A stretch of 64,000 nt of DNA from Candidatus Krumholzibacteriia bacterium (GTDB taxonomy: Bacteria; Krumholzibacteriota; Krumholzibacteriia; Krumholzibacteriales; Krumholzibacteriaceae): assembly GCA_025453655.1 (NCBI GenBank), contig JALOPX010000001.1:1376-65375 (forward strand). The letters are read 5' to 3'. Below, in pieces: positions 1-63,929 of this stretch. Positions within the stretch are counted from its first letter, which is position 1, and the number at the start of each line of letters is the position of its first letter. The translations under genes were made by a program, and so were the position numbers. The notes beneath the pieces are model-generated. The model did not search any database, was not told where the DNA came from, and saw only the letters and a list, made by a program, of their open reading frames with translations.

Positions 1-95
1 TCGTAACTCCTGTCATGATAGCCTGCAAGCGCTCGCCATGTTATCTGATAAGCATAGCGGGCACGGCGGGCGCTTCAGCCCCCGGCACATGTTTG

Positions 96-1151
96 CTACA
101 TGTCGTCCAGGGGACTCCTCACTCCCCTACCTCCCCGGTTCAACACGTGGGTATATATCATCGTCGTCTTCACGTCGCTGTGGCCGAGAAGCTCCTGGAT
201 CGTTCTGATATCGTACCCCTTCTCGAGAAGATGCGTCGCAAACGAATGTCTCATCGTATGACAGCTCGCCGGTTTGGCTACGCCCGCCTGCCTGACGGCG
301 CTTTTTACCGCCCGCTGCAGCACCGATTCATGAAGATGGTGACGCCGCGTCTCGCCGGTCTCCCGGTCGCGATAGAATCTCGTGGCCGGGAATACCCACT
401 GCCAGCCCCATTCCCGCGCCGCGTTCGGGTACTTGCGCGCGAGCGCGTCAGGGAGAGCGACGGCGCCGTATCCTTTTCGAAGATCCGCATCGTGCTGAAT
501 CCTGACGCGCGATATATGCTCGGCGAGCGGCCTTTTGAGGCTCGCCGGCAGGAGCGTCATCCGGTCCTTCTGCCCTTTTCCGTTTCGCACTGTGATTTCT
601 CCGCGGACAAAATCGACATCCTTGATCCTCAGCCGCGCGCACTCCAGGAGCCTCAGTCCCGACCCGTAGAGAATCGACGCCATGAGCCATGTGACGCCGT
701 GCAACTGCCCGAGAACCGCATGAACCTCGCTTTGCGTCAGCACGACGGGGAGCCTCACGGGCTTTTTGGCCCGCACAACATCGTCGAGCCAGTCGAGGTC
801 CTTTCTTAGCACTTCCCTGTAGAGGAACAGGATCGCGTTGAGAGCCTGGTTCTGCGTCGAGGCGCTGACCTGCCCTTTTGTCGCGAGATGAGAAAGGAAT
901 GCGGTGATCTCCTTCTCGCCCATGACGAGCGGGTGTTTCTTTCCGTGGAACAAAATGTATCGCCTGATCCACGCGACATAGGTTTTCTCGGTCCTTCGGC
1001 TGTAATGCCTCGCCTGAATGGCCCGGCTCACCAGTTCGAGAAGCCTCGGCTCGCGGCGGATATTATCCGGCCCTTCCCGCGCGAATATTATAGATGAATA
1101 AATCTTGCCGGTGCCCGACGGGCCCGCCTGTGGATAATGATTCATTGACAT
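96..1151 (-). CDS. intI: Integron-type integrase (tyrosine recombinase), apparently intact
   Basis: Near-colinear with class 1 IntI. The IntI-specific additional domain is present ([27 protein letters not shown]). C-terminal motifs [39 protein letters not shown] are present with an R..K..HxxR..Y catalytic set. The N-terminal ~20 aa of the ORF may be an over-extension; the true start could be an internal non-ATG codon. Confidence 0.85.
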
Positions 1152-1285
1152 CCCTGCACCCCAAACCGGATAGTGCCAGGCGCTCTGTAAAATCCCCGGA
1201 TCGCGCTGCCATTATATCCGGTTATGTGGTTGGATGTCAAGAAGATAGTCGCTTCGCTACTTCGAGGATCCCCTGTCTTCCCCGC

Positions 1286-2335
1286 CTACCTCTTCCCCTT
1301 CTCGAGGTCGAGCAGATATTTCTTTCGCCACAGCCCCCCGCCGTACCCGGTGAGCCTGCCGTCCGCGCCGATCACCCTGTGGCACGGGATGATGATCGCG
1401 ATCCTGTTGTCGCCGTTCGCCCTCGCCACCGCCCGCACCGCGGCGGGCATGCCGATCGCAGCGGCCTGCTCGCCGTAGGAGCGTGTCGCTCCGTAGGGGA
1501 TCTTTCGAAGCCCCGCCCAGACCTTCTCCTGAAACGGCGTCCCGGTCGTGATGAGGGGAAGGTCGAATGCCTTTCGCTTCCCGGCGAAATATTCCCCGAT
1601 CTGCGCGTTCAGAGCGTCGAAGTGCCTGCAGGGCCCGGGGACGCATTCGGCGCCGAGGAGTTTGTTGATCCGCCTGATCTGCGTCTCCAGCATCCTCCTG
1701 TCGGCGAACTCGAAGAGGCAGATCCCCTCGTCGGTCCCGCCGGCCAGCATCGGCCCGAGCGGAGTGAGGATCCTCGTCGTCGAGACGAGCCTCCCCTCGC
1801 GGCTTTTGACCGGAGAGAAGCCTGCCGCCTTTTTGAATGAATCGGTGAACCCGCTGAGCGATTCGTACCCCGAATCGAAGGCGGTGTCGACGACCTTTTC
1901 GCCGTGCCTTATCCTGCCGAAGGCCTGCCCGACCCGCAGCGAGCGAAGGTAAGCCTGGAATGTCATCCCGTGATACTTCTTGAACCAGTGCCTGACACGG
2001 CTGGGGTCGAGGCCGCGGGCGCGAAGTTCCGCGTCGCGCATCGTCAGGCCAGAGCCCACGGCGATCTCCTCGAGAAGGGGCGCGAGCCATTCCGGCGCGG
2101 CCCCCCTGTGCTCCATCGGCCGGCAGACCTTGCAGGGCCTGTACCCGTGATGAAGCGCTTCGCCCGCCGACCCGAAGAACTCGACGTTCTCCCGTTTCGG
2201 TTTCCGCGCGGTGCACGTCGGGCGGCAGAATATCCCCGTCGTTTTGACGCCCACGACGAATATTCCCTCGTAGCCGGTGTCCTTGTTCAGCAGCGCTTTA
2301 TACAATGTGTCGTCGTCCGGCAGTGAGCGTTCCAT
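1286..2335 (-). CDS. ada: Bifunctional Ada: N-terminal methylphosphotriester-DNA methyltransferase with AraC-type HTH, plus C-terminal O6-methylguanine-DNA methyltransferase
   Basis: N-terminal Cys4 Zn motif (FCRPTC...CKVC), a central AraC HTH and the C-terminal PCHRV active-site motif. A GGAAAGG Shine-Dalgarno sits 7 nt before the ATG. Confidence 0.9.
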   Translation of the reverse strand: MERSLPDDDTLYKALLNKDTGYEGIFVVGVKTTGIFCRPTCTARKPKRENVEFFGSAGEALHHGYRPCKVCRPMEHRGAAPEWLAPLLEEIAVGSGLTMRDAELRARGLDPSRVRHWFKKYHGMTFQAYLRSLRVGQAFGRIRHGEKVVDTAFDSGYESLSGFTDSFKKAAGFSPVKSREGRLVSTTRILTPLGPMLAGGTDEGICLFEFADRRMLETQIRRINKLLGAECVPGPCRHFDALNAQIGEYFAGKRKAFDLPLITTGTPFQEKVWAGLRKIPYGATRSYGEQAAAIGMPAAVRAVARANGDNRIAIIIPCHRVIGADGRLTGYGGGLWRKKYLLDLEKGKR

Positions 2336-2593: not shown

Positions 2594-3622
2594 TTAAAAC
2601 ATCTTCCCCAACACAAGCCCATAGACATGATCGTACTTGTTTTCGCCATAAAATTCATCGGTTCGGGCCGGATAATCCTTCCTCGCATAATCCAGCCTTG
2701 CCACGATCCCATTCTGAGGATGTCGGTACCCGATCCCAAAACCCAGATACGAATACTTTATGGAATTATAAGTATACGAAGTGCTGCGGGATCCGGTTCT
2801 GACATACAGTGTTTCAAACAATGAAGCTTCAAAGCCAAAGCGAAATCCACTGGCCTCCCTCAGATAATATCCGAGTTCACTGCTTCCGCCGACCTGATCG
2901 TAAAGAACGCGAACACCCACGCCCGGCACATCCCGCCCCAGGATTCTTGATGCCGATGCATGCGGCGGCGTGGAAATATCCATCCCGAATCCGAATCTGT
3001 TTTCCCGAAACTGCTCGATCGGGTCTGATTCACTGAAATATTCGATGTCTTTCCCGATATTTTTTAAACAGGTCCCTATCGTCGCGCGAAGAGCATACCC
3101 TTCCTGGGTCGTAACGGACCATGAGGCGATCGCTCCCATATCGAAGCTTGTATAGGCGACGGTATACTCCTCAACATGTTTGAACGCAACACCAAGGCCG
3201 ATCGAGTAGTTCCCCATGCGCCGGCCCACAGCCGCGGCCCCGGACAGGTAATAATTGAGGCGATCGCATTGGGCGGGGTCCGCGAAATAAGTGCAATCGA
3301 CATCAAGCGCTTCACTTGAATATCCGACAAGCCCGCCGAACAGGATATTCCCCTTCGATCCTCCCGCCGTAATTCTCATGTCGGTATATTTCAACTGCTC
3401 GAGGAGTTTATTATAGCTCGCTTCGAGGTATACGCCGTTCGTCCAGGCGAGGGCCGCCGGATTGTAATATCCGTTGACCGGCGCCGCGAGGTCCGCTGTT
3501 CCCGCCTCCCCCATCCCGATATTTCTTGTTCCCCGGGAGTATACCAGCACCTGGGAATGTGCGGGTGCGCCTGTCGCCCCGGCGATGCAAAAGACCAGCA
3601 GAAACGTTCCTGCCCTTTTCAT
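2594..3622 (-). CDS. FadL/TodX/PorV-like outer-membrane transport beta-barrel
   Basis: Signal peptide MKRAGTFLLVFCIAGATGAPAHS. Hatch-like N-terminus with GxGxAGxAD...NPAAL (NPA motif). Strand-alternating pattern and a C-terminal aromatic residue (..KMF). Start moved to the third in-frame ATG (3622), which has a GGAGG SD at 6-nt spacing; the track start at 3649 lacks an SD. Confidence 0.6.
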   Translation of the reverse strand: MKRAGTFLLVFCIAGATGAPAHSQVLVYSRGTRNIGMGEAGTADLAAPVNGYYNPAALAWTNGVYLEASYNKLLEQLKYTDMRITAGGSKGNILFGGLVGYSSEALDVDCTYFADPAQCDRLNYYLSGAAAVGRRMGNYSIGLGVAFKHVEEYTVAYTSFDMGAIASWSVTTQEGYALRATIGTCLKNIGKDIEYFSESDPIEQFRENRFGFGMDISTPPHASASRILGRDVPGVGVRVLYDQVGGSSELGYYLREASGFRFGFEASLFETLYVRTGSRSTSYTYNSIKYSYLGFGIGYRHPQNGIVARLDYARKDYPARTDEFYGENKYDHVYGLVLGKMF

Positions 3623-8360: not shown

Positions 8361-10505
8361 TTAAAAACTCAGTTCGAGGTTCATGTTTACCTCCCAGTAC
8401 TGCTTCCTGTCCTCCGACAGGTAGGGAGCGAACTTCTTCACGTATGCGACATCCAGATCGATCTTCCCCGAATCGGTCAGCTTTCGCGACCTCTCGAACC
8501 CGGTCCTGAGGTCCCCCGAATCGGAGCCCGAGGAACCGACGACCCGCCTCTCCCCGTCCACCATGCCGAGGGTGTTGTTCTTCTGCGTCTTGTAGGTCGT
8601 CCGCACGAATAAGATCATGTCCTTGACCGGATTGTACTCGCAGTACATCCTCATCCTGTGCTCGAAATTCTCGTTGGTGCGGCCGTAGAGTTTTTCCCCG
8701 CCCGATTTCTGAAGGTAACTTCCCGTGTCCTTCATCTGGTAGCCGTGGCTGAGGGTGAGTTTCATCCGTTTATAGATCCTGAACGCCGCGTCCGTCTCGA
8801 GGGTCGTGTTCCTGTCGAGGTAGTTGCGGTCCGTGTTGAACGTGTATTCGGTGTAGTCGAACTTCATCTCGTATTTCTGCGAGAGTGTAATCCACGGCAC
8901 CGGGTCGAAGCTCAGCTTCGGGGAGAGGAGGTACTGGAAATTTGTCCTGTTGTCGTCGGAGAGCGAGGCGTCGATATTGACCGTCTCCGACTTCAGGGTC
9001 GAGAAGATGATGTCGGTCTTTATCCTCTTGAAGAGGTACCCGTTTAGCTTGCAGTCGAGGGAGGAGTTGAGGTAGTCGACGTCCCGCGGGTTCTGCTCCC
9101 TCTTCTTGAAAAATTTCTGCTTCAGGGACGTTGACGCCGTGACGGTGACGTACAGGGAATCGTGGATCGTCTGGGAGACTGTCCCGCTCAGGGAGTAATC
9201 CTTCGTCCTGTAGCTGGCGATCGAGGTCGGCCCGAGCTCGGTGTCGCTTTCGGCGCGCTTGAGATTCACGCTGAAGGTTCCCCGTTTGCTATATTTGAAG
9301 GAGACCGCGGCGCCCATCTCCTTGTTCTCGTATTCCTTGTTGCGCCTGTCCTCTATCATGAACCTCTCGTCGGAATAATCGCGGTTGAAGGTCAGGTCCA
9401 CCTGGATCCGGTCGGTGATCGAAGCGGAGGAGGCGAGCTTCAGCGTCTCGCCTTTGTTTTCATTTCTCTCCTGGTAGGCGGACTCGGGGTCGTCGAGGAT
9501 CTCCATCGAGTTCCCGTAGGGGGGCTGAATCTCCCTGATCGTCCCCATCTCCCTGCTGTAGCTGACGTCGAGGAGTTTCTTCTCCTCCGGCTTCCCGACG
9601 GCGAACCTCGCCTTCATCGTGTCGCTGTGGCTCGGCATCCAGTCGAACACGATGTACGACACGCTGCTCTCCTCCCGTCTGAAATTCGTCCCGATCCCGG
9701 CGCTCGCACTGACCATCTCGCCGAAGGAGTAATTGAAGTGCCCTCCCGCGTCGGCCTTCGCCGTAGTGTTGTACTTGAAATCCTGCTTTCCCCTCGATCC
9801 CTCGGCGGCGGCGTAGACCTGCGACTTCGACGCCCCGAGGATCGGTCTTGTGAGGGTGAAATTGAATCCCGCCGACTCCTTGTTGAAGACGATCTCCTTG
9901 CCGTACCTCGCCAGGGCGAGGCTCATCTGTTTGTTGTAGGTCTCGGCCAGCATGATATTCAGCATGTACCGGCCGGGGTCGATCTTCGCGGCCGAATTGG
10001 TGAACGACTCGATGATCACGTCCATGTCCCTTCCCCTGTAGCTCTTCTTCCCCACGCTCAGGTTGGAGTTGATCGCCCACCCGTCGCCGGTCAGATAGCT
10101 CATCCCGAACCCGGTCTCCGCGTACTTGTCGCTCTCCGTGAATGCGATTTTGGACCTGCTGGTGAAGGTCAGGTCGCCGACAGCAAGGGGGGCGGCAGGA
10201 ACTATCGCGGAGTCGGCCGGGGTGCCTGAGGAATCGGCCCGTGCCGCGGTCGAGTCGGAGAGGGTATCCGCGCCTTCGGCCGGGGCCGGGGGCCCTGCTT
10301 GCCCCGTTCCCGCCGGGGCCGGCTGCGGGGCAACATTGGGTGACGGCGAATTCGCTGCGGCGCCCGCCGAGCTCCCCGGCGCCGCTTCGGCCAGGACGGC
10401 CGGAGCCGCGACGAGAAGCATCAGCGCCGCGAGGAGCGCCGCCGCGCAAAGCGCGGGCGCCATCCGCCTCGCGAACCCAGTCGATATGCCGCGAAATCCC
10501 TTCAT
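8361..10505 (-). CDS. Large (714 aa) outer-membrane beta-barrel protein with an Ala/Pro/Gly-rich N-terminal linker
   Basis: Signal peptide (MAPALCAAALLAALMLLVAAPAVLA), then ~90 aa of low complexity (AAANSPSPNVAPQPAPAGTGQAGPPAPA). Then ~550 aa of alternating beta-strand pattern rich in Y/T/S/N/D, ending in ..NLELSF. Confidence 0.55.
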   Translation of the reverse strand: MKGFRGISTGFARRMAPALCAAALLAALMLLVAAPAVLAEAAPGSSAGAAANSPSPNVAPQPAPAGTGQAGPPAPAEGADTLSDSTAARADSSGTPADSAIVPAAPLAVGDLTFTSRSKIAFTESDKYAETGFGMSYLTGDGWAINSNLSVGKKSYRGRDMDVIIESFTNSAAKIDPGRYMLNIMLAETYNKQMSLALARYGKEIVFNKESAGFNFTLTRPILGASKSQVYAAAEGSRGKQDFKYNTTAKADAGGHFNYSFGEMVSASAGIGTNFRREESSVSYIVFDWMPSHSDTMKARFAVGKPEEKKLLDVSYSREMGTIREIQPPYGNSMEILDDPESAYQERNENKGETLKLASSASITDRIQVDLTFNRDYSDERFMIEDRRNKEYENKEMGAAVSFKYSKRGTFSVNLKRAESDTELGPTSIASYRTKDYSLSGTVSQTIHDSLYVTVTASTSLKQKFFKKREQNPRDVDYLNSSLDCKLNGYLFKRIKTDIIFSTLKSETVNIDASLSDDNRTNFQYLLSPKLSFDPVPWITLSQKYEMKFDYTEYTFNTDRNYLDRNTTLETDAAFRIYKRMKLTLSHGYQMKDTGSYLQKSGGEKLYGRTNENFEHRMRMYCEYNPVKDMILFVRTTYKTQKNNTLGMVDGERRVVGSSGSDSGDLRTGFERSRKLTDSGKIDLDVAYVKKFAPYLSEDRKQYWEVNMNLELSF

Positions 10506-10581: not shown

Positions 10582-11433
10582 TCATTCCTTTATATCGCCG
10601 GGCCGCCCGAGCTGCTCGAACAGCCTGAACCATTCGTCGAGCCCGAGTTCCTCGGGCCTCTTCCCCGCGTCGACCCGCGCCGCGGCGAAGGCCTTCTCCG
10701 CGGCCTCCCGCCCGCCGGGGACGCCGACGTGACGGCCGGGACCGTCGCCGGAGCGAAAAACGTTGAGCAGCTTTTTCCGCCGCTGCGAAAAACCTTTTTT
10801 AACGAAGGCCAGGAACTCGCCGGGCTTCGCGGGGGCGCCGTCCTTCCTGCCGGGCCGGAATTCCAGGACGACGCTGTCCACCTTCGGCGGCGGCATGAAG
10901 GACCCCGCCTTAACCTTCGCCACCTCGGATATCCCGAGGTAGGCCTGCATAAAGACCGACAGGATACCACAATTCCTCTCGCCGGGCGAGGCCAGAATCC
11001 GTTCGCCGACCTCCTTCTGGACCATTATCACCGCTCCGTCGCAGCCCGCCGAGAAGGGAAGCTTCAGAAGTATGGTGCTGGTAAGAAGATACGGGATGTT
11101 GCCGGCGACCCTGTACCTTCGCCACCCCCTCTTCCCCGCCTCGGCGTCGAAGTCGACCTCCCTGATATCCGCCTCCACTATATCGACTTGCGGCCATCCG
11201 GCGCACGCTTCCCTGAGGAGCGCCGCCAGATCCCGGTCTATCTCGAACGCAGCAATTCTCGCGCCTTTTTCGGCGAGGGGGATCGTCAGCGCCCCCTTCC
11301 CCGGCCCTATCTCGAATATCGGCAGCCCCTCCCCGGGGCGCAGCGCCTCCACGATCTTCCTTATCGCCCCTTCCGAGACGAGGAAGTTCTGCCCGAGGCT
11401 CTTCCTGGCCCTCCCCGCCTGGAACTCCTTCAT
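10582..11433 (-). CDS. rsmA: 16S rRNA (adenine1518/1519-N6)-dimethyltransferase
   Basis: LGQNFL motif and a SAM-binding EIGPGKGALT segment. Start set at MKEFQ; the track ORF extends 52 codons upstream through Arg/Gly-rich sequence. Confidence 0.85.
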   Translation of the reverse strand: MKEFQAGRARKSLGQNFLVSEGAIRKIVEALRPGEGLPIFEIGPGKGALTIPLAEKGARIAAFEIDRDLAALLREACAGWPQVDIVEADIREVDFDAEAGKRGWRRYRVAGNIPYLLTSTILLKLPFSAGCDGAVIMVQKEVGERILASPGERNCGILSVFMQAYLGISEVAKVKAGSFMPPPKVDSVVLEFRPGRKDGAPAKPGEFLAFVKKGFSQRRKKLLNVFRSGDGPGRHVGVPGGREAAEKAFAAARVDAGKRPEELGLDEWFRLFEQLGRPGDIKE

Positions 11434-47494: not shown

Positions 47495-47629
47495 CTATAC
47501 GGTAAGGCGCTTTCTTCCCCTGGTTCTTCTTCTCTTCAGAACATCGCGGCCCGTGGCCGTGCTCATTCTTTTCCTGAACCCGTGAGTTTTTTTCCGTCTC
47601 TTGTTATGCGGTTGAAATGTGCGTTTCAT
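47495..47629 (-). CDS. rpmH: 50S ribosomal protein L34
   Basis: [44 protein letters not shown]. Start set at the internal ATG; the track ORF is over-extended. Confidence 0.9.
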
Positions 47630-48053
47630 CGGTCCAACCTCTTGTTGATATATATCCCGGCGCTTTATACATAAACAACAAAGAATAGAAACCGGGCCCC
47701 TCCTTGTCAAGTCTTTTATGCCCCCCTCGGATAACTCTTTTGTTTCCGGCCTGTTCCGGCACGCCATTTCGCGAATTAATTCAGCCCTTCACGATCGGGA
47801 TGCTTTTACCTCCGCCGCCTTTGTCGTATCTGCTTGCCCGGCTGGATATTATAAATATTTTCCCCCTTTGTGCAAAAAATTCTTGATATGCATTTTTCCC
47901 TATGATACATTACCGTCCGCGGGATGGGGGGAGTATCAAAACCGGGGGCCTTTCTACCGGATCACATTGTTCCCCTGCTTGGAGATTGTGGAAAAAGCTC
48001 TGACATCATATTAACAAGCCCGCCGTTTTTGTTGTAATAATTGAAATTGCCGA

Positions 48054-48075
48054 GTTATCCACAATTGTGGATAAC
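48054..48075. promoter_or_regulatory. Two inverted perfect DnaA boxes forming a 22-bp palindrome in the dnaA promoter / leader
   Basis: GTTATCCACAATTGTGGATAAC contains TTATCCACA and TGTGGATAA (both 9 of 9). It lies ~60 nt upstream of the dnaA ATG. An AT-rich tract at 47845-47915 and partial boxes at 47976 (TGTGGAAAA) and 47730 (GGATAAC) lie upstream. Confidence 0.7.
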
Positions 48076-48135
48076 CTGGATTTTTGGAGAGCGCCTGTCT
48101 TTCCACGGGGATATTTTTTTCTTGTGCGGGGCTCG

Positions 48136-49500
48136 ATGAGCGCGGAAAAAGAACTGAACGCGATCGATCTTTCCAGGATCTGGGCGGAGATTCTCGCCCT
48201 TTTGAAGGATAAGGTCAACGCCCAGAGTTACCAGACCTGGTTCGAGCCGACACGTCTCGTCAGCTTCGAGCAGGGTGTCATCGTGATCCAGGGCCCGAAT
48301 TCCTTTTTCATAGACTGGCTGGCCGAGCATCACGTCGACAGAATAAGCTCCGCCGCCGCCACGGTGCTGGGAGAACCCGTCGCCGTGGAGTTCACATCTC
48401 CTTCTCCCGCAAGGAGTTCGCGTATTCACGCTCCGCTCGAGCGGTCGACCCTGGTCAGAAACCCCGTCATTCTCCCCAACAAGGTTCAGCTCAACGGCAG
48501 GTATACCTTCGGCGAATTCGTCGTGGGAAACGGCAACCGGCTCGCCCACGCGGCGGCCCTCGCCGTGGCCGAAAAGCCGGCTAAAACCTATAACCCGCTC
48601 TTCATCTACGGGGGGCCCGGGCTCGGCAAGACCCATTTAATACAGGCGATAGGCCATTTCGTCCTTCAGGAGCATCCGGGCATGCGAATCTCTTACGTCT
48701 CGACGGAGAGCTTCGTCAACGAGCTTATCCACGCCATCAGGACGGGCGTAACTCTCGAATTCAAAGAAAGATACAGGAACGTCGACATTCTCTTGATCGA
48801 CGACATACATTTCCTTGCCGGCAAGGAAAGGACCCAGGAGGAGTTCTTTTTCACCTTCAACGCCCTGCACGACTCCAACAAGCAGATCGTCTGCACGAGC
48901 GACAGGCCCCCGAAGGAGATCCCGACCCTCCAGGAGCGCCTCACCTCGAGGTTCGAATGGGGCCTTATAACCGACATACAGCCTCCCGACTTCGAGACGC
49001 GCGTCGCGATCCTCCGGAAAAAGATCGAGAACGAGCATATTCCCATCCCCGACAGCGTCATCACGCTGATAGCGGAGAACGTCAAGAGCAACACGCGCGA
49101 GCTCGAGGGCTCCCTTATCAGGATCCTCGCGTGCGCCAGCCTCACGAACAGGGACATAAACGTCGACATGGCCCGGGAGATCATCCAGGACATCGTCAAG
49201 GGCCCGGAAAAGAACCTGACGATCCAGACGATTCAAAACGCCGCCGCCAGATGCTTCGACGTCCCCGCCGACAGCCTCCGCGCGAAGACGAGGATCGGAA
49301 GGGTCGTCGTCGCGAGGCACGTAGCCATCTATCTCTCGCGCGAGCTCACCTCCTTCTCCCTCGTTCAGATCGGCGCAAAATTCGGCGGACGCGACCACAG
49401 CACGGTCCTGCATTCGTGCAGGAAGATAGAGCGCGAATGCGCCACCGACGCCTCCCTCGCGAGAAAGATCGAGAATCTCCGCGAAGAGCTCTCTTCGTGA
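48136..49500 (+). CDS. dnaA: Chromosomal replication initiator DnaA
   Basis: N-terminus MSAEKELNAIDLSRIWAEIL, AAA+ Walker A GGPGLGKTHL, sensor motifs and a C-terminal DNA-binding domain IV. Start set at the ATG at 48136; the track start (GTG 48067) lies inside the DnaA-box palindrome. Confidence 0.9.
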   Translation: MSAEKELNAIDLSRIWAEILALLKDKVNAQSYQTWFEPTRLVSFEQGVIVIQGPNSFFIDWLAEHHVDRISSAAATVLGEPVAVEFTSPSPARSSRIHAPLERSTLVRNPVILPNKVQLNGRYTFGEFVVGNGNRLAHAAALAVAEKPAKTYNPLFIYGGPGLGKTHLIQAIGHFVLQEHPGMRISYVSTESFVNELIHAIRTGVTLEFKERYRNVDILLIDDIHFLAGKERTQEEFFFTFNALHDSNKQIVCTSDRPPKEIPTLQERLTSRFEWGLITDIQPPDFETRVAILRKKIENEHIPIPDSVITLIAENVKSNTRELEGSLIRILACASLTNRDINVDMAREIIQDIVKGPEKNLTIQTIQNAAARCFDVPADSLRAKTRIGRVVVARHVAIYLSRELTSFSLVQIGAKFGGRDHSTVLHSCRKIERECATDASLARKIENLREELSS

Positions 49501-61672: not shown

Positions 61673-63223
61673 ATGAAAGACCAGCCCGGTAATGGAATAT
61701 GGCCCGACACCGTGGACTGCCGCGTTCTGATCGATTCGATCCTCGGCAGCGACGCCGCGGGGATAGCGGTGCTGGACGCGAAGGGCAGATACCTTTTATT
61801 CAACCGTGGCGCAGAAGCCCTCACCGGGTACGACCGGGATGAGGTCATGGGAAAGAAGGCCCCCGACGCGCTTTACCGCCCCGGGGACAGGGAGGCTGTG
61901 GAAACCGCCCTCTCCTCCGCGACTCCCGTGATAAACAGGGAGATAAGGATTCGGAGAAAGGACGGCAGCGAAAAGGACCTGATCCTTTCGATATCGCGCC
62001 GGAGCGGCGGAGAGGGGGCCCCGGATTATTTCCTCCAGGTATTCATCGACAACAGCGAGAGGAAGCATCTCGACCAGCTTCTCCTTCAGTCCCAGAAGAT
62101 GGAGACGATAGGAGACATGGCGGGCGGGATAGCCCACGACTTCAACAATCTTCTCGAGGGGATCCTCGGGTATACGACATTCATGAAGGAGCTCGTGCCG
62201 GAAGGCCACGAGCTTAGGTCCTACCTCGAAATCATCGAGCGGTCGGCCGGGAAGGCCTCCGAGTTCACCGAAAGGCTTCTGACCCTGTCGAACGGTAAAG
62301 AGAGGGACGAGAATCTCGTCAACTGCAACGTGCTTCTTCGCGGCGTGACGAAGCTGCTGGAGAAGACGGTGGACAAGAATATCACGCTGGAACTCAACCT
62401 CAAGAAGGACCTCAAGGCGGTCAGGGGGTCGGCGGGGATGCTCGAACAGGCCTTTCTGAACATATGCATGAATGCCAGGGACGCGATGCCCGGGGGCGGC
62501 AAACTGGTCATATCGAGCGATAATGTCCGGGTCGACGAAACCTTCCCCAGGATGAGCCTCAAGATGGAAACCGGCGAATATGTACGCATATCGATCTCGG
62601 ACACCGGGATAGGGATGGACTCGCGAACGGTCAACAGGATCTTCAAGCCCTTCTTCACGACCAAGCGGCGCGGGGAGGGGGCGGGCCTGGGCCTCAACGT
62701 GGTTTATGGAATCGTCGACAGCCACGGGGGATTCATAAACGTCTACAGCGAGATCGGGCAGGGGACGACCTTCAACATATATCTGCGCGCCGAGAGCACC
62801 GAGGTCCCGGAGGAGGACTGGACGATGGAGCATCGCGAATCGCCCCGCGGCAACGGGGAGACGGTGCTCGTCATAGACGACGAGCCGATGATCATCGATA
62901 TCGGCAGGGCCATGCTGAGCAAGCTCGGGTACAAGGTCATCACCGCGGGGGAGGTCGACCTCGGGCTCGAGTATTTCAACGACCGGAAGGACGAGATAGA
63001 CATCGTCATCCTCGACGTCGTAATGCCGGGCGCGAACGGCAGGGATATTCTCCGGGAGATAAGAAGGGTAAAACCCCTGGTTCCCGTCATCCTCTCCAGC
63101 GGGTACGACAGGTCGGTAATCGAGGAGGATTTCTCCGCCGACTGCAACCTCTTCTTCATGCAGAAACCCTACTCGATGGACGATCTCGGGAGGAATGTCC
63201 ACAAGAGCCTTCACGGCACATAA
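61673..63223 (+). CDS. Hybrid sensor histidine kinase (PAS, HisKA, HATPase_c, C-terminal receiver)
   Basis: PAS domain, H-box GGIAHDFNNLL, N/G boxes and a receiver with VLVIDDE...ILDVVMPG..GRD. Confidence 0.85.
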   Translation: MKDQPGNGIWPDTVDCRVLIDSILGSDAAGIAVLDAKGRYLLFNRGAEALTGYDRDEVMGKKAPDALYRPGDREAVETALSSATPVINREIRIRRKDGSEKDLILSISRRSGGEGAPDYFLQVFIDNSERKHLDQLLLQSQKMETIGDMAGGIAHDFNNLLEGILGYTTFMKELVPEGHELRSYLEIIERSAGKASEFTERLLTLSNGKERDENLVNCNVLLRGVTKLLEKTVDKNITLELNLKKDLKAVRGSAGMLEQAFLNICMNARDAMPGGGKLVISSDNVRVDETFPRMSLKMETGEYVRISISDTGIGMDSRTVNRIFKPFFTTKRRGEGAGLGLNVVYGIVDSHGGFINVYSEIGQGTTFNIYLRAESTEVPEEDWTMEHRESPRGNGETVLVIDDEPMIIDIGRAMLSKLGYKVITAGEVDLGLEYFNDRKDEIDIVILDVVMPGANGRDILREIRRVKPLVPVILSSGYDRSVIEEDFSADCNLFFMQKPYSMDDLGRNVHKSLHGT

Positions 63224-63232
63224 TGCATCCGA

Positions 63233-63362
63233 GGGGGGGGGGGATGTCATCAGTCCCCCGCTCAGACAGGTCCTCGCGCACCCGCCGGCTTTTTTGCAGA
63301 CGAGAGGTGCCGCCTGGGCGCGCTGCGGAACTCGCGGGTCGGACTGATGACATCCCCCCCTC
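63233..63362. repeat. Structured inverted-repeat element, copy 1 (about 130 nt including a G11/C7 outer stem)
   Basis: Outer stem GGGGGGGGGGATGTCATCA / TGATGACATCCCCCCC. It encloses conserved module A (GTCCCCCGCTCAGACAGGTCCTCGCGC), a ~40-nt spacer and module B (GCGCTGCGGAACTCGCGGGTCGGAC). Confidence 0.7.
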
Positions 63363-63430
63363 TATTTTGGGAAGCGGTCCTGATATCGGCAGGGTGCCTG
63401 AGTCAGACAGGGATTCGCGTGGCGCCGGTC

Positions 63431-63539
63431 AAACGGCAGTCCCCCGCTCAGACAGGTCCTCGCGCACCCATGGACTTTTACGGCAGTTGAGCGGCCCAGC
63501 CTGGGTGCGCTGCGGAACTCGCGGGTCGGACTGCCGTTT
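63431..63539. repeat. Structured inverted-repeat element, copy 2 (direct orientation)
   Basis: Identical modules A and B with a different spacer. Copy-specific outer stem CCGGTCAAACGGCA / TGCCGTTTAACCGG. Confidence 0.7.
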
Positions 63540-63719
63540 AACCGGCATGAATGGTTAAAGTCATGTTGCATCACGACAATAATATAGGCCAGGCATCCCC
63601 CCCTCTTTTTGTAGAAGCGGTCCGTATGCTCGCGGGCATTTTCGGCGGATGAGAGGCGCTGCCTGAACAATCGCGCCACGCCGCGAAGAATTTCTTAACC
63701 CACTAAAAACATAATACTG

Positions 63720-63812
63720 CCCGTCATGCGTCAGTCCGACCCGCGAGTTCCGCAGCGCGGCGCGGAGCGACGCGCGAGGACCTGTCTGAGCGGGGGACTG
63801 ACGCATGACGGG
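63720..63812. repeat. Structured inverted-repeat element, copy 3 (inverted orientation, short 13-nt spacer)
   Basis: Reverse complements of modules B then A. Outer stem CCCGTCATGCGTCA / TGACGCATGACGGG. Confidence 0.7.
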
Positions 63813-63929
63813 CGATGACCGCATCTCCTGCTTGAACGATTCGCCGCCTTCTGCAATAATCCCCCCGGGGAACGGAGGCCATCTGATCGAACGAATCGGT
63901 GCCGCATGCGGCAGCGGAGAGGAGATGTA

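Follow-up and report, generated by a model that had tools for sequence, protein, structure and literature searches.

A probable chromosomal integron of the reverse type in Candidatus Krumholzibacteria, with attI predicted to cross the window edge

A 64,000-nucleotide stretch of contig JALOPX010000001.1 from a Candidatus Krumholzibacteria metagenome-assembled genome (MAG), here called the window, carries close to its left edge an integron integrase gene, intI, with no gene cassettes in sight. The locus is very probably a reverse-type chromosomal integron whose primary cassette attachment site (attI) straddles the window edge; the cassettes would be invisible in the window because the array runs leftward from attI off the left edge. 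An inverted-type integron with its array left of the edge had been among the readings proposed by the first-pass annotation of this DNA, and it is favoured here by a conserved region 3′ of intI, by divergence of related sequences after a shared CGTT and by same-strand downstream arrays in 14 of 14 loci. The reverse layout is already known; the Candidatus Krumholzibacteria lineage is new for it.

Results

intI encodes an intact integron integrase

The open reading frame (ORF) at 96–1151 on the minus strand is a genuine, intact integron integrase. The product scored 486.3 bits with the NCBIfam model TIGR02249 ('integron integrase', cutoff 265), and its scores with the XerC and XerD equivalog models were below the cutoffs (138 vs 335 and 136.5 vs 329.6 bits respectively). 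Pfam domains Phage_int_SAM_4 and Phage_integrase were detected, and the Vibrio cholerae integrase VchIntIA (PDB 2a3v) gave a full-length match over residues 41–349 (E=1.4e-94). This alignment covered the IntI-specific insertion, at query residues ~222–270 between the halves of the catalytic domain, and the catalytic set was complete (R167, K195, H298, R301, H324 and Y333). The sub-cutoff scores and the presence of the insertion ruled out a XerC or XerD identity. The earlier description of a 351-amino-acid IntI with the extra domain and a full catalytic set, distinct from a generic XerCD, was therefore upheld by TIGR02249, the 2a3v insertion and the six residues, and a placement with XerC/D was not found, those scores lying far below the cutoffs.

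A form of 349 amino acids (P0001) that starts at the second ATG, at 1145, is 100% identical and is named integron integrase, from a Candidatus Krumholzibacteria MAG (65,928-nt contig), at both NCBI and JGI. Exact database look-up of the 351-amino-acid form, and of the product of the neighbouring ada gene, returned no record. The ATG at 1145, which is the database start, has a better-spaced AGGG ribosome-binding site than the ATG at 1151.

A conserved region 3′ of intI ends at a common point of divergence

The regions downstream of intI were aligned (alignment A2) from eight contigs encoding IntI proteins 75–100% identical to that of the window; six of the eight are distinct. These included L081, L082 (a Logan contig from a strain with 94% IntI identity) and L083, L085, L087 and L002 (75–79%). 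A region of ~215 nt 3′ of intI was conserved, and every sequence diverged after a shared CGTT (6/6 distinct). L081, a JGI contig of 2515 nt (3300037461), showed 2 mismatches in 2163 nt in comparison with the window and extended 352 nt past its left edge; window position 1 corresponds to L081 2163 and the predicted crossover, G|TT, to L081 2282–2284. The non-coding region shared by L081 and L082 after the intI stop ends in ACATTACGTT. Over the ~130 alignment columns that lead up to the crossover these two contigs were 96% identical (114/119), compared with 28% (7/25) after it.

The crossover G|TT was placed from the divergence point and from the cassette boundaries in L085 and L083, and the point of divergence 3′ of intI is, as judged by homology with those two loci, the attI crossover. 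By the same homology, attI in the window genome would extend from the intI stop (96) leftward for ~215 nt, with the exchange point 119 nt beyond position 1. Four blocks recurred in the alignment: GCTTGCAG(G/T)CTATCA; TTGATT; a palindrome, ATATTRGAT(AC)-N-ATCYAATAT, in which L002 has a compensatory G>A / C>T change; and, 13 nt after the palindrome, TAC(ATTA/TATA/ATCT)CGTT.

The GC content of L081 was 0.59 in intI, 0.505 in attI and 0.395 past the crossover, the genome value being 0.60. A same-strand ORF starts in the post-crossover DNA, of which 68 amino acids are present before the contig end; it has a signal-peptide-like N-terminus, and no database homologue of these 68 amino acids was found. 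The attC site (cassette recombination site) of this first cassette is predicted to have the R″ box GGCTAAC, because it would be complementary to the TTAGCC that follows the L081 crossover.

Three further observations concern this region. A 19-nt motif, GCTATGCTTWTCAGATARC, follows closely on the 3′ side of the intI stop; the window genome has a single copy (40–58), while L082 carries it twice, ~65 nt apart (2345–2445), with an insertion of ~60 nt there; the duplicated motif may be a protein-binding attI repeat or a slippage product. The attI box GCTTGCAG(G/T)C (window 16–30, minus strand) has the sequence with which the L″ arm (CGCTTGCAGCTG) begins in the ~100-nt attC sites found in L085 and L083; both could contain one element recognised by IntI, or attI could have been joined to the remnant of an attC arm. 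Finally, in the Krumholzibacteriia MAG locus L001 (IntI 72%) the first ORF after intI (10997–11260) encodes a Phd/YefM-type antitoxin (PF02604, 55 bits) and GTTAGAG is located only a few bases away from the intI stop, so attI may be much shorter in that lineage.

Related loci carry cassette arrays at the homologous position

L085 is an 87-kb ENA scaffold with an IntI 75% identical to that of the window. Its crossover, ACATTACG|TTAGAC, is homologous to the attI site of the window genome, and 3′ of intI, on the same strand, are five ORFs and five ~100-nt attC copies. Each of these sites folds as a long hairpin that is imperfect, its 5′ arm containing bulged bases, and is bounded by RYCTAAC and GTTAGRY. 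Every R″ box is exactly the reverse complement of the TTAGRY at the start of its own cassette, the cassette start and R″ pairs being GTTAGAC/GTCTAAC, GTTAGAT/ATCTAAC, GTTAGGC/GCCTAAC and GTTAGGT/ACCTAAC; the TTAGAC at the attI site matches the R″ of attC1, GTCTAAC. Such pairing is the signature expected when cassettes are inserted as circles at G|TT.

L083, an NCBI MAG contig with 79% IntI identity and ada–intI order as in the window, has the crossover CTATACG|TTAGGCC, followed by an ORF and a ~100-nt attC of the L085 family with the R″ box GGCCTAAC. A second cassette, TTAGCCAG...CTGGCTAAC, closes in an attC of 60 nt. The GC-rich ~100-nt attC family of the clade (CGCTTGCAGCTG...CAGCTGAAGC) is common to L083, L085 and L087, which carry two, five and one attC sites respectively.

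Longer arrays were found on larger contigs. L092 (IntI 72%, 368-kb contig) has, on the intI strand, an array spanning 10 kb or more with nine model matches, and L093–L095 (IntI 71%, contigs up to 359 kb) have arrays of at least 10 kb, also on the intI strand, with attC sites in L093/L095; toxin–antitoxin cassettes are present in both L092 and L093–L095. The IntI proteins of L093 and L095 are identical, but the arrays differ in a two-cassette block of 1.87 kb (L093 11855–14790 vs L095 4448–5514): L093 carries cassettes A (159 amino acids), B (207 amino acids) and A again, and L095 carries A once, an attC-bounded duplication or insertion. As the two loci differ by two cassettes under an identical IntI, arrays in this clade turn over.

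Array layout divides the IntI family into two

A covariance model (R1) was built from six ~100-nt attC sites (alignment A6); the short L083_2 site, misaligned in MAFFT (alignment A3), was left out. The model was strand-specific on its own family, giving ~100 bits on the ORF strand vs ~45 on the other. It was used to search 88 loci with intI oriented to the plus strand. Plus-strand attC sites downstream of intI were found in 14 loci (L085, L087, L083, L031, L005, L036, L057, L007, L012, L008, L003, L018, L024 and L058), and the canonical layout, in which the sites are upstream of intI and on the minus strand, in nine (L065, L022, L032, L039, L077, L037, L021, L056 and L061); none of the R1-positive loci was of mixed class. 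L092 and L093/L095, which were not placed in the IntI tree, are also same-strand downstream.

The two layout classes corresponded without exception to two IntI super-clades in a neighbour-joining tree of 85 IntIs (Fisher p=1.2e-6, kinship ignored). The window IntI fell in the reverse super-clade beside L082, L083, L085, L087 and L002; the grouping with inverted-type integrases that the first-pass annotation had proposed to check is borne out in this tree, where the window IntI clusters with the 14 loci of reverse architecture. The sample of this super-clade included Krumholzibacteria, Acidobacteriota classes, Gemmatimonadota, Elusimicrobiota, 'Deltaproteobacteria' and one Actinomycetes MAG. 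As an independent line of support, contig ends within 1.5 kb of intI were also distributed differently: 28 on the 3′ side vs one on the 5′ side in the reverse super-clade, and three and 14 respectively in the other clade (p=4e-8, kinship ignored). Contig breaks just 3′ of intI are seen likewise in the window, L081 and L082; with a variable array that begins immediately 3′ of the integrase gene, short-read assemblies would break right after attI.

Downstream arrays proposed by a chain test in L027, L045 and L077 were rejected as chance GAAC/GTTC hairpin links in GC-rich coding DNA that the model did not confirm; in L077 the true attC sites are upstream, on the opposite strand. L012 contains a second integrase-like segment ~8 kb upstream of its matched intI (~2900–3000 and 10884–10913), and its 30-nt repeat, TGATTTAYACCCAYGT, is a conserved C-terminal IntI motif. 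L012 may have two integron integrases.

No attC sites are detectable within the window

A search for repeat families in the 64-kb window found none, an attC scanner (inner hairpin and chain test) gave 0 chain links, and the clade-specific attC covariance model gave no match in the window at E<=1 with default filters, in agreement with the earlier remark that no cassette array was visible. Likewise, no attC was found in L082 or in the 352 nt that L081 adds past the left edge. With the filters off the covariance model gave a sole match in the window, at 63719–63813 (25.8 bits on the plus strand and 19.9 bits on the minus strand). It was rejected as an attC: it is without AAC/GTT boxes, has near-equal strand scores, has no ORF between copies and is a member of a palindromic trio. 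The trio consists of GC-rich imperfect palindromes of ~95–115 nt (63240–63345, 63428–63542 and 63719–63813, the third inverted), is intergenic after the ORF at 61673–63223, and looks like a REP/MITE-type element (repetitive extragenic palindrome or miniature inverted-repeat transposable element). Rfam and tRNA scans of the window gave nothing, and no transposase adjoins intI within it.

Two earlier scanner designs, one based on R″/R′ complementarity within a site and the other on AAC:GTT closure in the minimum free energy fold, were discarded as too noisy or as missing all true sites; they were inadequate because R′ belongs to the next cassette. A metagenome scan with the attI pattern recovered only L091, a duplicate of L085, and did not extend the array of the window genome.

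The intI promoter and the neighbouring ada gene

The coordinates of the features of the window are given in Table 1. The predicted intI promoter (P_intI) matches the sigma-70 consensus at 12/12 positions. The promoter block and leader are kept in L082 (IntI 94%) and in L083/L084 (79%) (alignment A4), and the order ada–intI is common to the window and these three loci. In a second chromosomal context, that of L085, L086, L087 and L002, intI is preceded by tatA and a strong terminator; here L085, L087 and L002 have CTTGACG-18-TATGAT at the P_intI position, followed by a shared GGGGGAC (alignment A5). Homology between the ada and tatA contexts starts at the −35 hexamer, and therefore the promoter would belong to the integron platform, with ada a mere neighbour. 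The adjacency of ada likewise looks incidental in this comparison, because close relatives carry the same promoter–intI–attI module after tatA. These data suggest that ada is a chromosomal neighbour upstream of, and outside, the platform, and that its co-direction with intI looks incidental.

Ada itself has a zinc-binding domain (Ada_Zn_binding), an AraC-type helix-turn-helix (HTH_18) and a methyltransferase (MGMT) DNA-binding domain. The first-pass annotation had ada co-directional with intI across a spacer of ~135 bp; Ada was confirmed by Pfam, both genes are on the minus strand, and the spacer (1152–1285) measured 134 bp. No terminator was predicted between the two genes.

Two motifs are candidate operator or leader elements. 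GGGGGA(C), ~14 nt after the P_intI −10, is common to the ada- and tatA-context relatives (L085 ~9961–10000), whereas repeats of CCGGAT/ATCCGG on both sides of the −10 are confined to the window lineage. LexA control of P_intI is known for Vibrio and for class 1 integrons; a canonical LexA palindrome was not recognised in the intI leader, and the lexA and recA promoters of the genome lie outside the window.

The first-pass annotation had listed weak candidate features in the spacer. The TTGACA hexamer placed at ~1157 is in fact at 1145–1150 on the plus strand, overlapping the intI start, and GTTGGAT does occur at 1229–1235 as reported, although it has no attI role, being on the opposite strand ATCCAAC, directly 3′ of the P_intI −35. 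As candidates for attI, the spacer TTGACA and GTTGGAT were ruled out, since the sites fall at the −35 region of P_intI.

Table 1. Features of the window discussed in the text.
Feature	Position	Strand	Details
intI, integron integrase	96..1151	-	351 aa, ATG at 1151; ORF list, TIGR02249 and 2a3v alignment
Putative attI, intI-proximal part	1..95	-	Conserved in alignment A2; site would go on ~119 nt past window position 1
attI 19-nt motif GCTATGCTTATCAGATAAC	58-40	-	Within intI-proximal attI; two copies in L082
attI conserved box GCTTGCAGGCTATCA	30-16	-	Alignment A2
attI GTTACGA	7-1	-	
Promoter-like pair ATAACA / TATCAT	44-39 / 20-15	-	Weak, 9/12, toward cassettes
intI 5′ leader, conserved	1152..1210	-	Alignments A4 and A5
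P_intI, predicted sigma-70 promoter	1211..1240	-	-35 TTGACA 1240-1235, 18-nt spacer, -10 TATAAT 1216-1211, toward intI
ada, bifunctional Ada regulator / O6-methylguanine methyltransferase	1286..2335	-	349 aa; Pfam Ada_Zn_binding, HTH_18, DNA_binding_1
Predicted oriC region	47600..48075		GC-skew minimum, gene-strand switch, DnaA boxes, gene order

Replication context

The cumulative GC-skew minimum is at ~48 kb, where a pair of DnaA boxes was found (TTATCCACA, 48055–48063, and TGTGGATAA, 48066–48074). dnaA (48067–49500), dnaN, recF, gyrB and gyrA are on the plus strand and yidC is on the minus strand, with an AT-rich intergenic stretch between. The listed GTG start of dnaA at 48067 overlaps the DnaA boxes, and the DnaA_N domain begins at residue 37; because of this overlap the true start is probably further downstream. 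The skew minimum, the dnaA region and the DnaA boxes agree with the earlier remark that the locus is origin-proximal.

The integron is located ~47 kb from oriC on the left replichore, and intI (minus strand) is co-directional with the leftward fork. The attC bottom strands (the window plus strand) would thus lie on the leading-strand template, with the cassettes co-directional with the fork. Loot et al. found that orientation in 25/30 sedentary chromosomal integrons and linked it to large, stable arrays (PMC5371416).

Discussion

Proposed organization and alternative explanations

In the proposed organization P_intI (1240–1211, minus strand) would drive intI (1151–96), and the primary site, attI, would lie immediately 3′ of the gene, comprising window positions 95–1 and ~119 nt leftward. 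Its end would be TACATTACG|TTAG, with strand exchange by IntI between G and TT. Cassettes would be inserted at attI in the orientation of intI, giving an array that continues leftward off the window, and could owe their transcription to read-through from P_intI, to a promoter between intI and attI, or to both; read-through into the cassettes is possible because no terminator was predicted in 1–95. An array so placed would be co-directional with replication and have its attC bottom strands on the leading-strand template, as is typical of stable chromosomal arrays. The locus shows the marks of a sedentary integron, namely a shared ada–intI site, a core-genome setting and an attC family shared among its relatives, with the second (tatA) context in a sister group.

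Several points weigh against this interpretation. The DNA of the window genome past the predicted crossover spans 233 nt, in which no attC was seen, and the attC-bounded cassettes of this genome are expected beyond those 233 nt. The site attI is defined here by sequence comparison; we infer which boxes IntI would bind, where cassette transcription would originate and that IntI would be active in recombination. The palindrome of attI has no left arm in L083, and some of the conserved boxes would thus be dispensable. No convincing conserved cassette promoter was found, the window candidate matching 9/12 positions (44–15, minus strand) and that of L085 10/12 at a different location. The IntI tree is a midpoint-rooted neighbour-joining tree without an outgroup, support values or references from Treponema, Chlorobium and Blastopirellula, and the Fisher p-values ignore phylogenetic non-independence and are indicative only.

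It is improbable that the locus is instead a cassette-less chromosomal integron of the In0 type, in which the low-GC DNA past the GTT would be ordinary flanking chromosome. In0 loci are common in genome surveys (51/215 IntI loci; PMC4889954), and attC sites were absent from the 64-kb window, from the 352 nt beyond it in L081 and from L082. However, the downstream sequence at hand is shorter than one typical cassette, so this absence means little. L081 and L082 are wholly different past the crossover though 96% identical over the preceding 119 aligned nt, the GC content falls to 0.395 in a genome of 0.60 and an orphan same-strand ORF starts there, and the syntenic L083 and all other informative relatives have cassettes at the homologous point. 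An In0, which the first-pass annotation had considered, is thus not supported by the relatives or by the divergence at the crossover. Its suggestion of a domesticated IntI appears highly improbable; such a protein would be a relic tyrosine recombinase of integron descent, co-opted for another role and no longer moving cassettes, and it might be co-expressed with ada after alkylation damage. The ada–intI order is conserved in the window, L082 and L083/L084, and with no terminator predicted between the genes read-through from ada could occur; yet intI has its own 12/12 promoter, and the promoter is conserved also in the relatives whose intI follows tatA and its strong terminator. Neither the catalytic set nor the IntI-specific insertion is damaged, attI is conserved while the first cassettes differ between close strains, and L093 and L095 show cassette polymorphism under an identical IntI, so that the intact catalytic set, the promoter and the conserved attI all speak against domestication.

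The least credible of the alternatives, with scarcely any likelihood, is that the integron was of the canonical divergent type and that a rearrangement, in placing ada beside the intI 5′ end, removed or shifted its attI and array. A canonical attI lies 5′ of the gene, and that side holds only the 134-bp spacer and ada; the spacer, though, consists of a conserved promoter with its leader and is no scar, and a conserved att-like region with a cassette junction is located 3′ of intI. Upstream opposite-strand arrays, moreover, were found in 0/14 loci of this IntI super-clade in the tree and in 9/9 of the other. A reverse-type chromosomal integron with attI across the window edge accordingly remains the favoured explanation.

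Implications

The apparent anomaly of an intact integrase without cassettes would then resolve as an edge effect of a known, under-appreciated architecture. It is conceivable, though we hold this only tentatively, that the reverse layout is the rule for a deep IntI super-clade across many non-proteobacterial phyla and not an oddity of a few genera. If so, such integrons would be systematically scored as cassette-less 'In0' or orphan integrases in surveys of MAGs. Surveys should, for this IntI super-clade, seek the array 3′ of intI on the same strand and distrust 'In0' calls at contig ends (28/29 informative contigs of the clade break just 3′ of intI). Read-through from P_intI, if it occurs, would couple expression of the first cassette to that of the integrase, unlike the canonical divergent arrangement of the cassette promoter (Pc) and P_intI. 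The additions made here are a candidate attI defined by comparison, a consensus P_intI, the identity of the attI box with the L″ arm and the clade-level split in architecture; the understanding of how integrons work is unchanged.

Comparison with known systems

The window resembles an In0 locus, as that class is defined by IntegronFinder, in having intI but, over 4 kb of the side that is assembled, no attC (PMC4889954). It is unlike In0 in that the absence of attC would be an edge effect: the putative attI points off the window, and the cassette starts of L081 and L082 differ. The canonical arrangement has intI divergent from attI and its cassettes, and Pc is inside or beside the intI 5′ end, whereas in the window element attI and the cassettes would be 3′ of intI on the same strand, so that intI is also co-directional with replication. 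The predicted attC bottom strands would lie on the leading-strand template, as in canonical sedentary integrons. With the V. cholerae superintegron and VchIntIA the locus shares the integrase fold and catalytic residues, and relatives of the window have, like that superintegron, a homogeneous lineage-specific attC family and toxin–antitoxin cassettes.

A putative attI just downstream of intI, semi-conserved across lineages and with the canonical G|TT insertion point, was described for archaeal integrons by Ghaly et al. (2022) (PMC9668308); attI is downstream of intI in both cases, the window element being bacterial. Reverse integrons have been reported in Treponema denticola and other Treponema (PMC3607928, PMC4909258) and in Chlorobium phaeobacteroides and Blastopirellula marina (10.1101/427781), and Cury et al. 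described a paraphyletic 'inverted integron-integrase group' (PMC4889954), so common descent of the integrases may not define the reverse type. No paper on integrons of Krumholzibacteria was found in the literature. The locus described here is like the reverse integrons of Treponema, Chlorobium and Blastopirellula in being chromosomal and sedentary, in the RYYYAAC/GTTRRRY boxes of the attC sites that bound cassettes in its relatives, and in first cassettes that vary between strains. It differs from known reverse integrons in its Candidatus Krumholzibacteria host, in its clade-specific attI of ~215 nt, which carries a palindrome of 9–10 bp 13 nt before the crossover box TACATTACGTTAG, and in the GC-rich family of ~100-nt attC sites of its clade.

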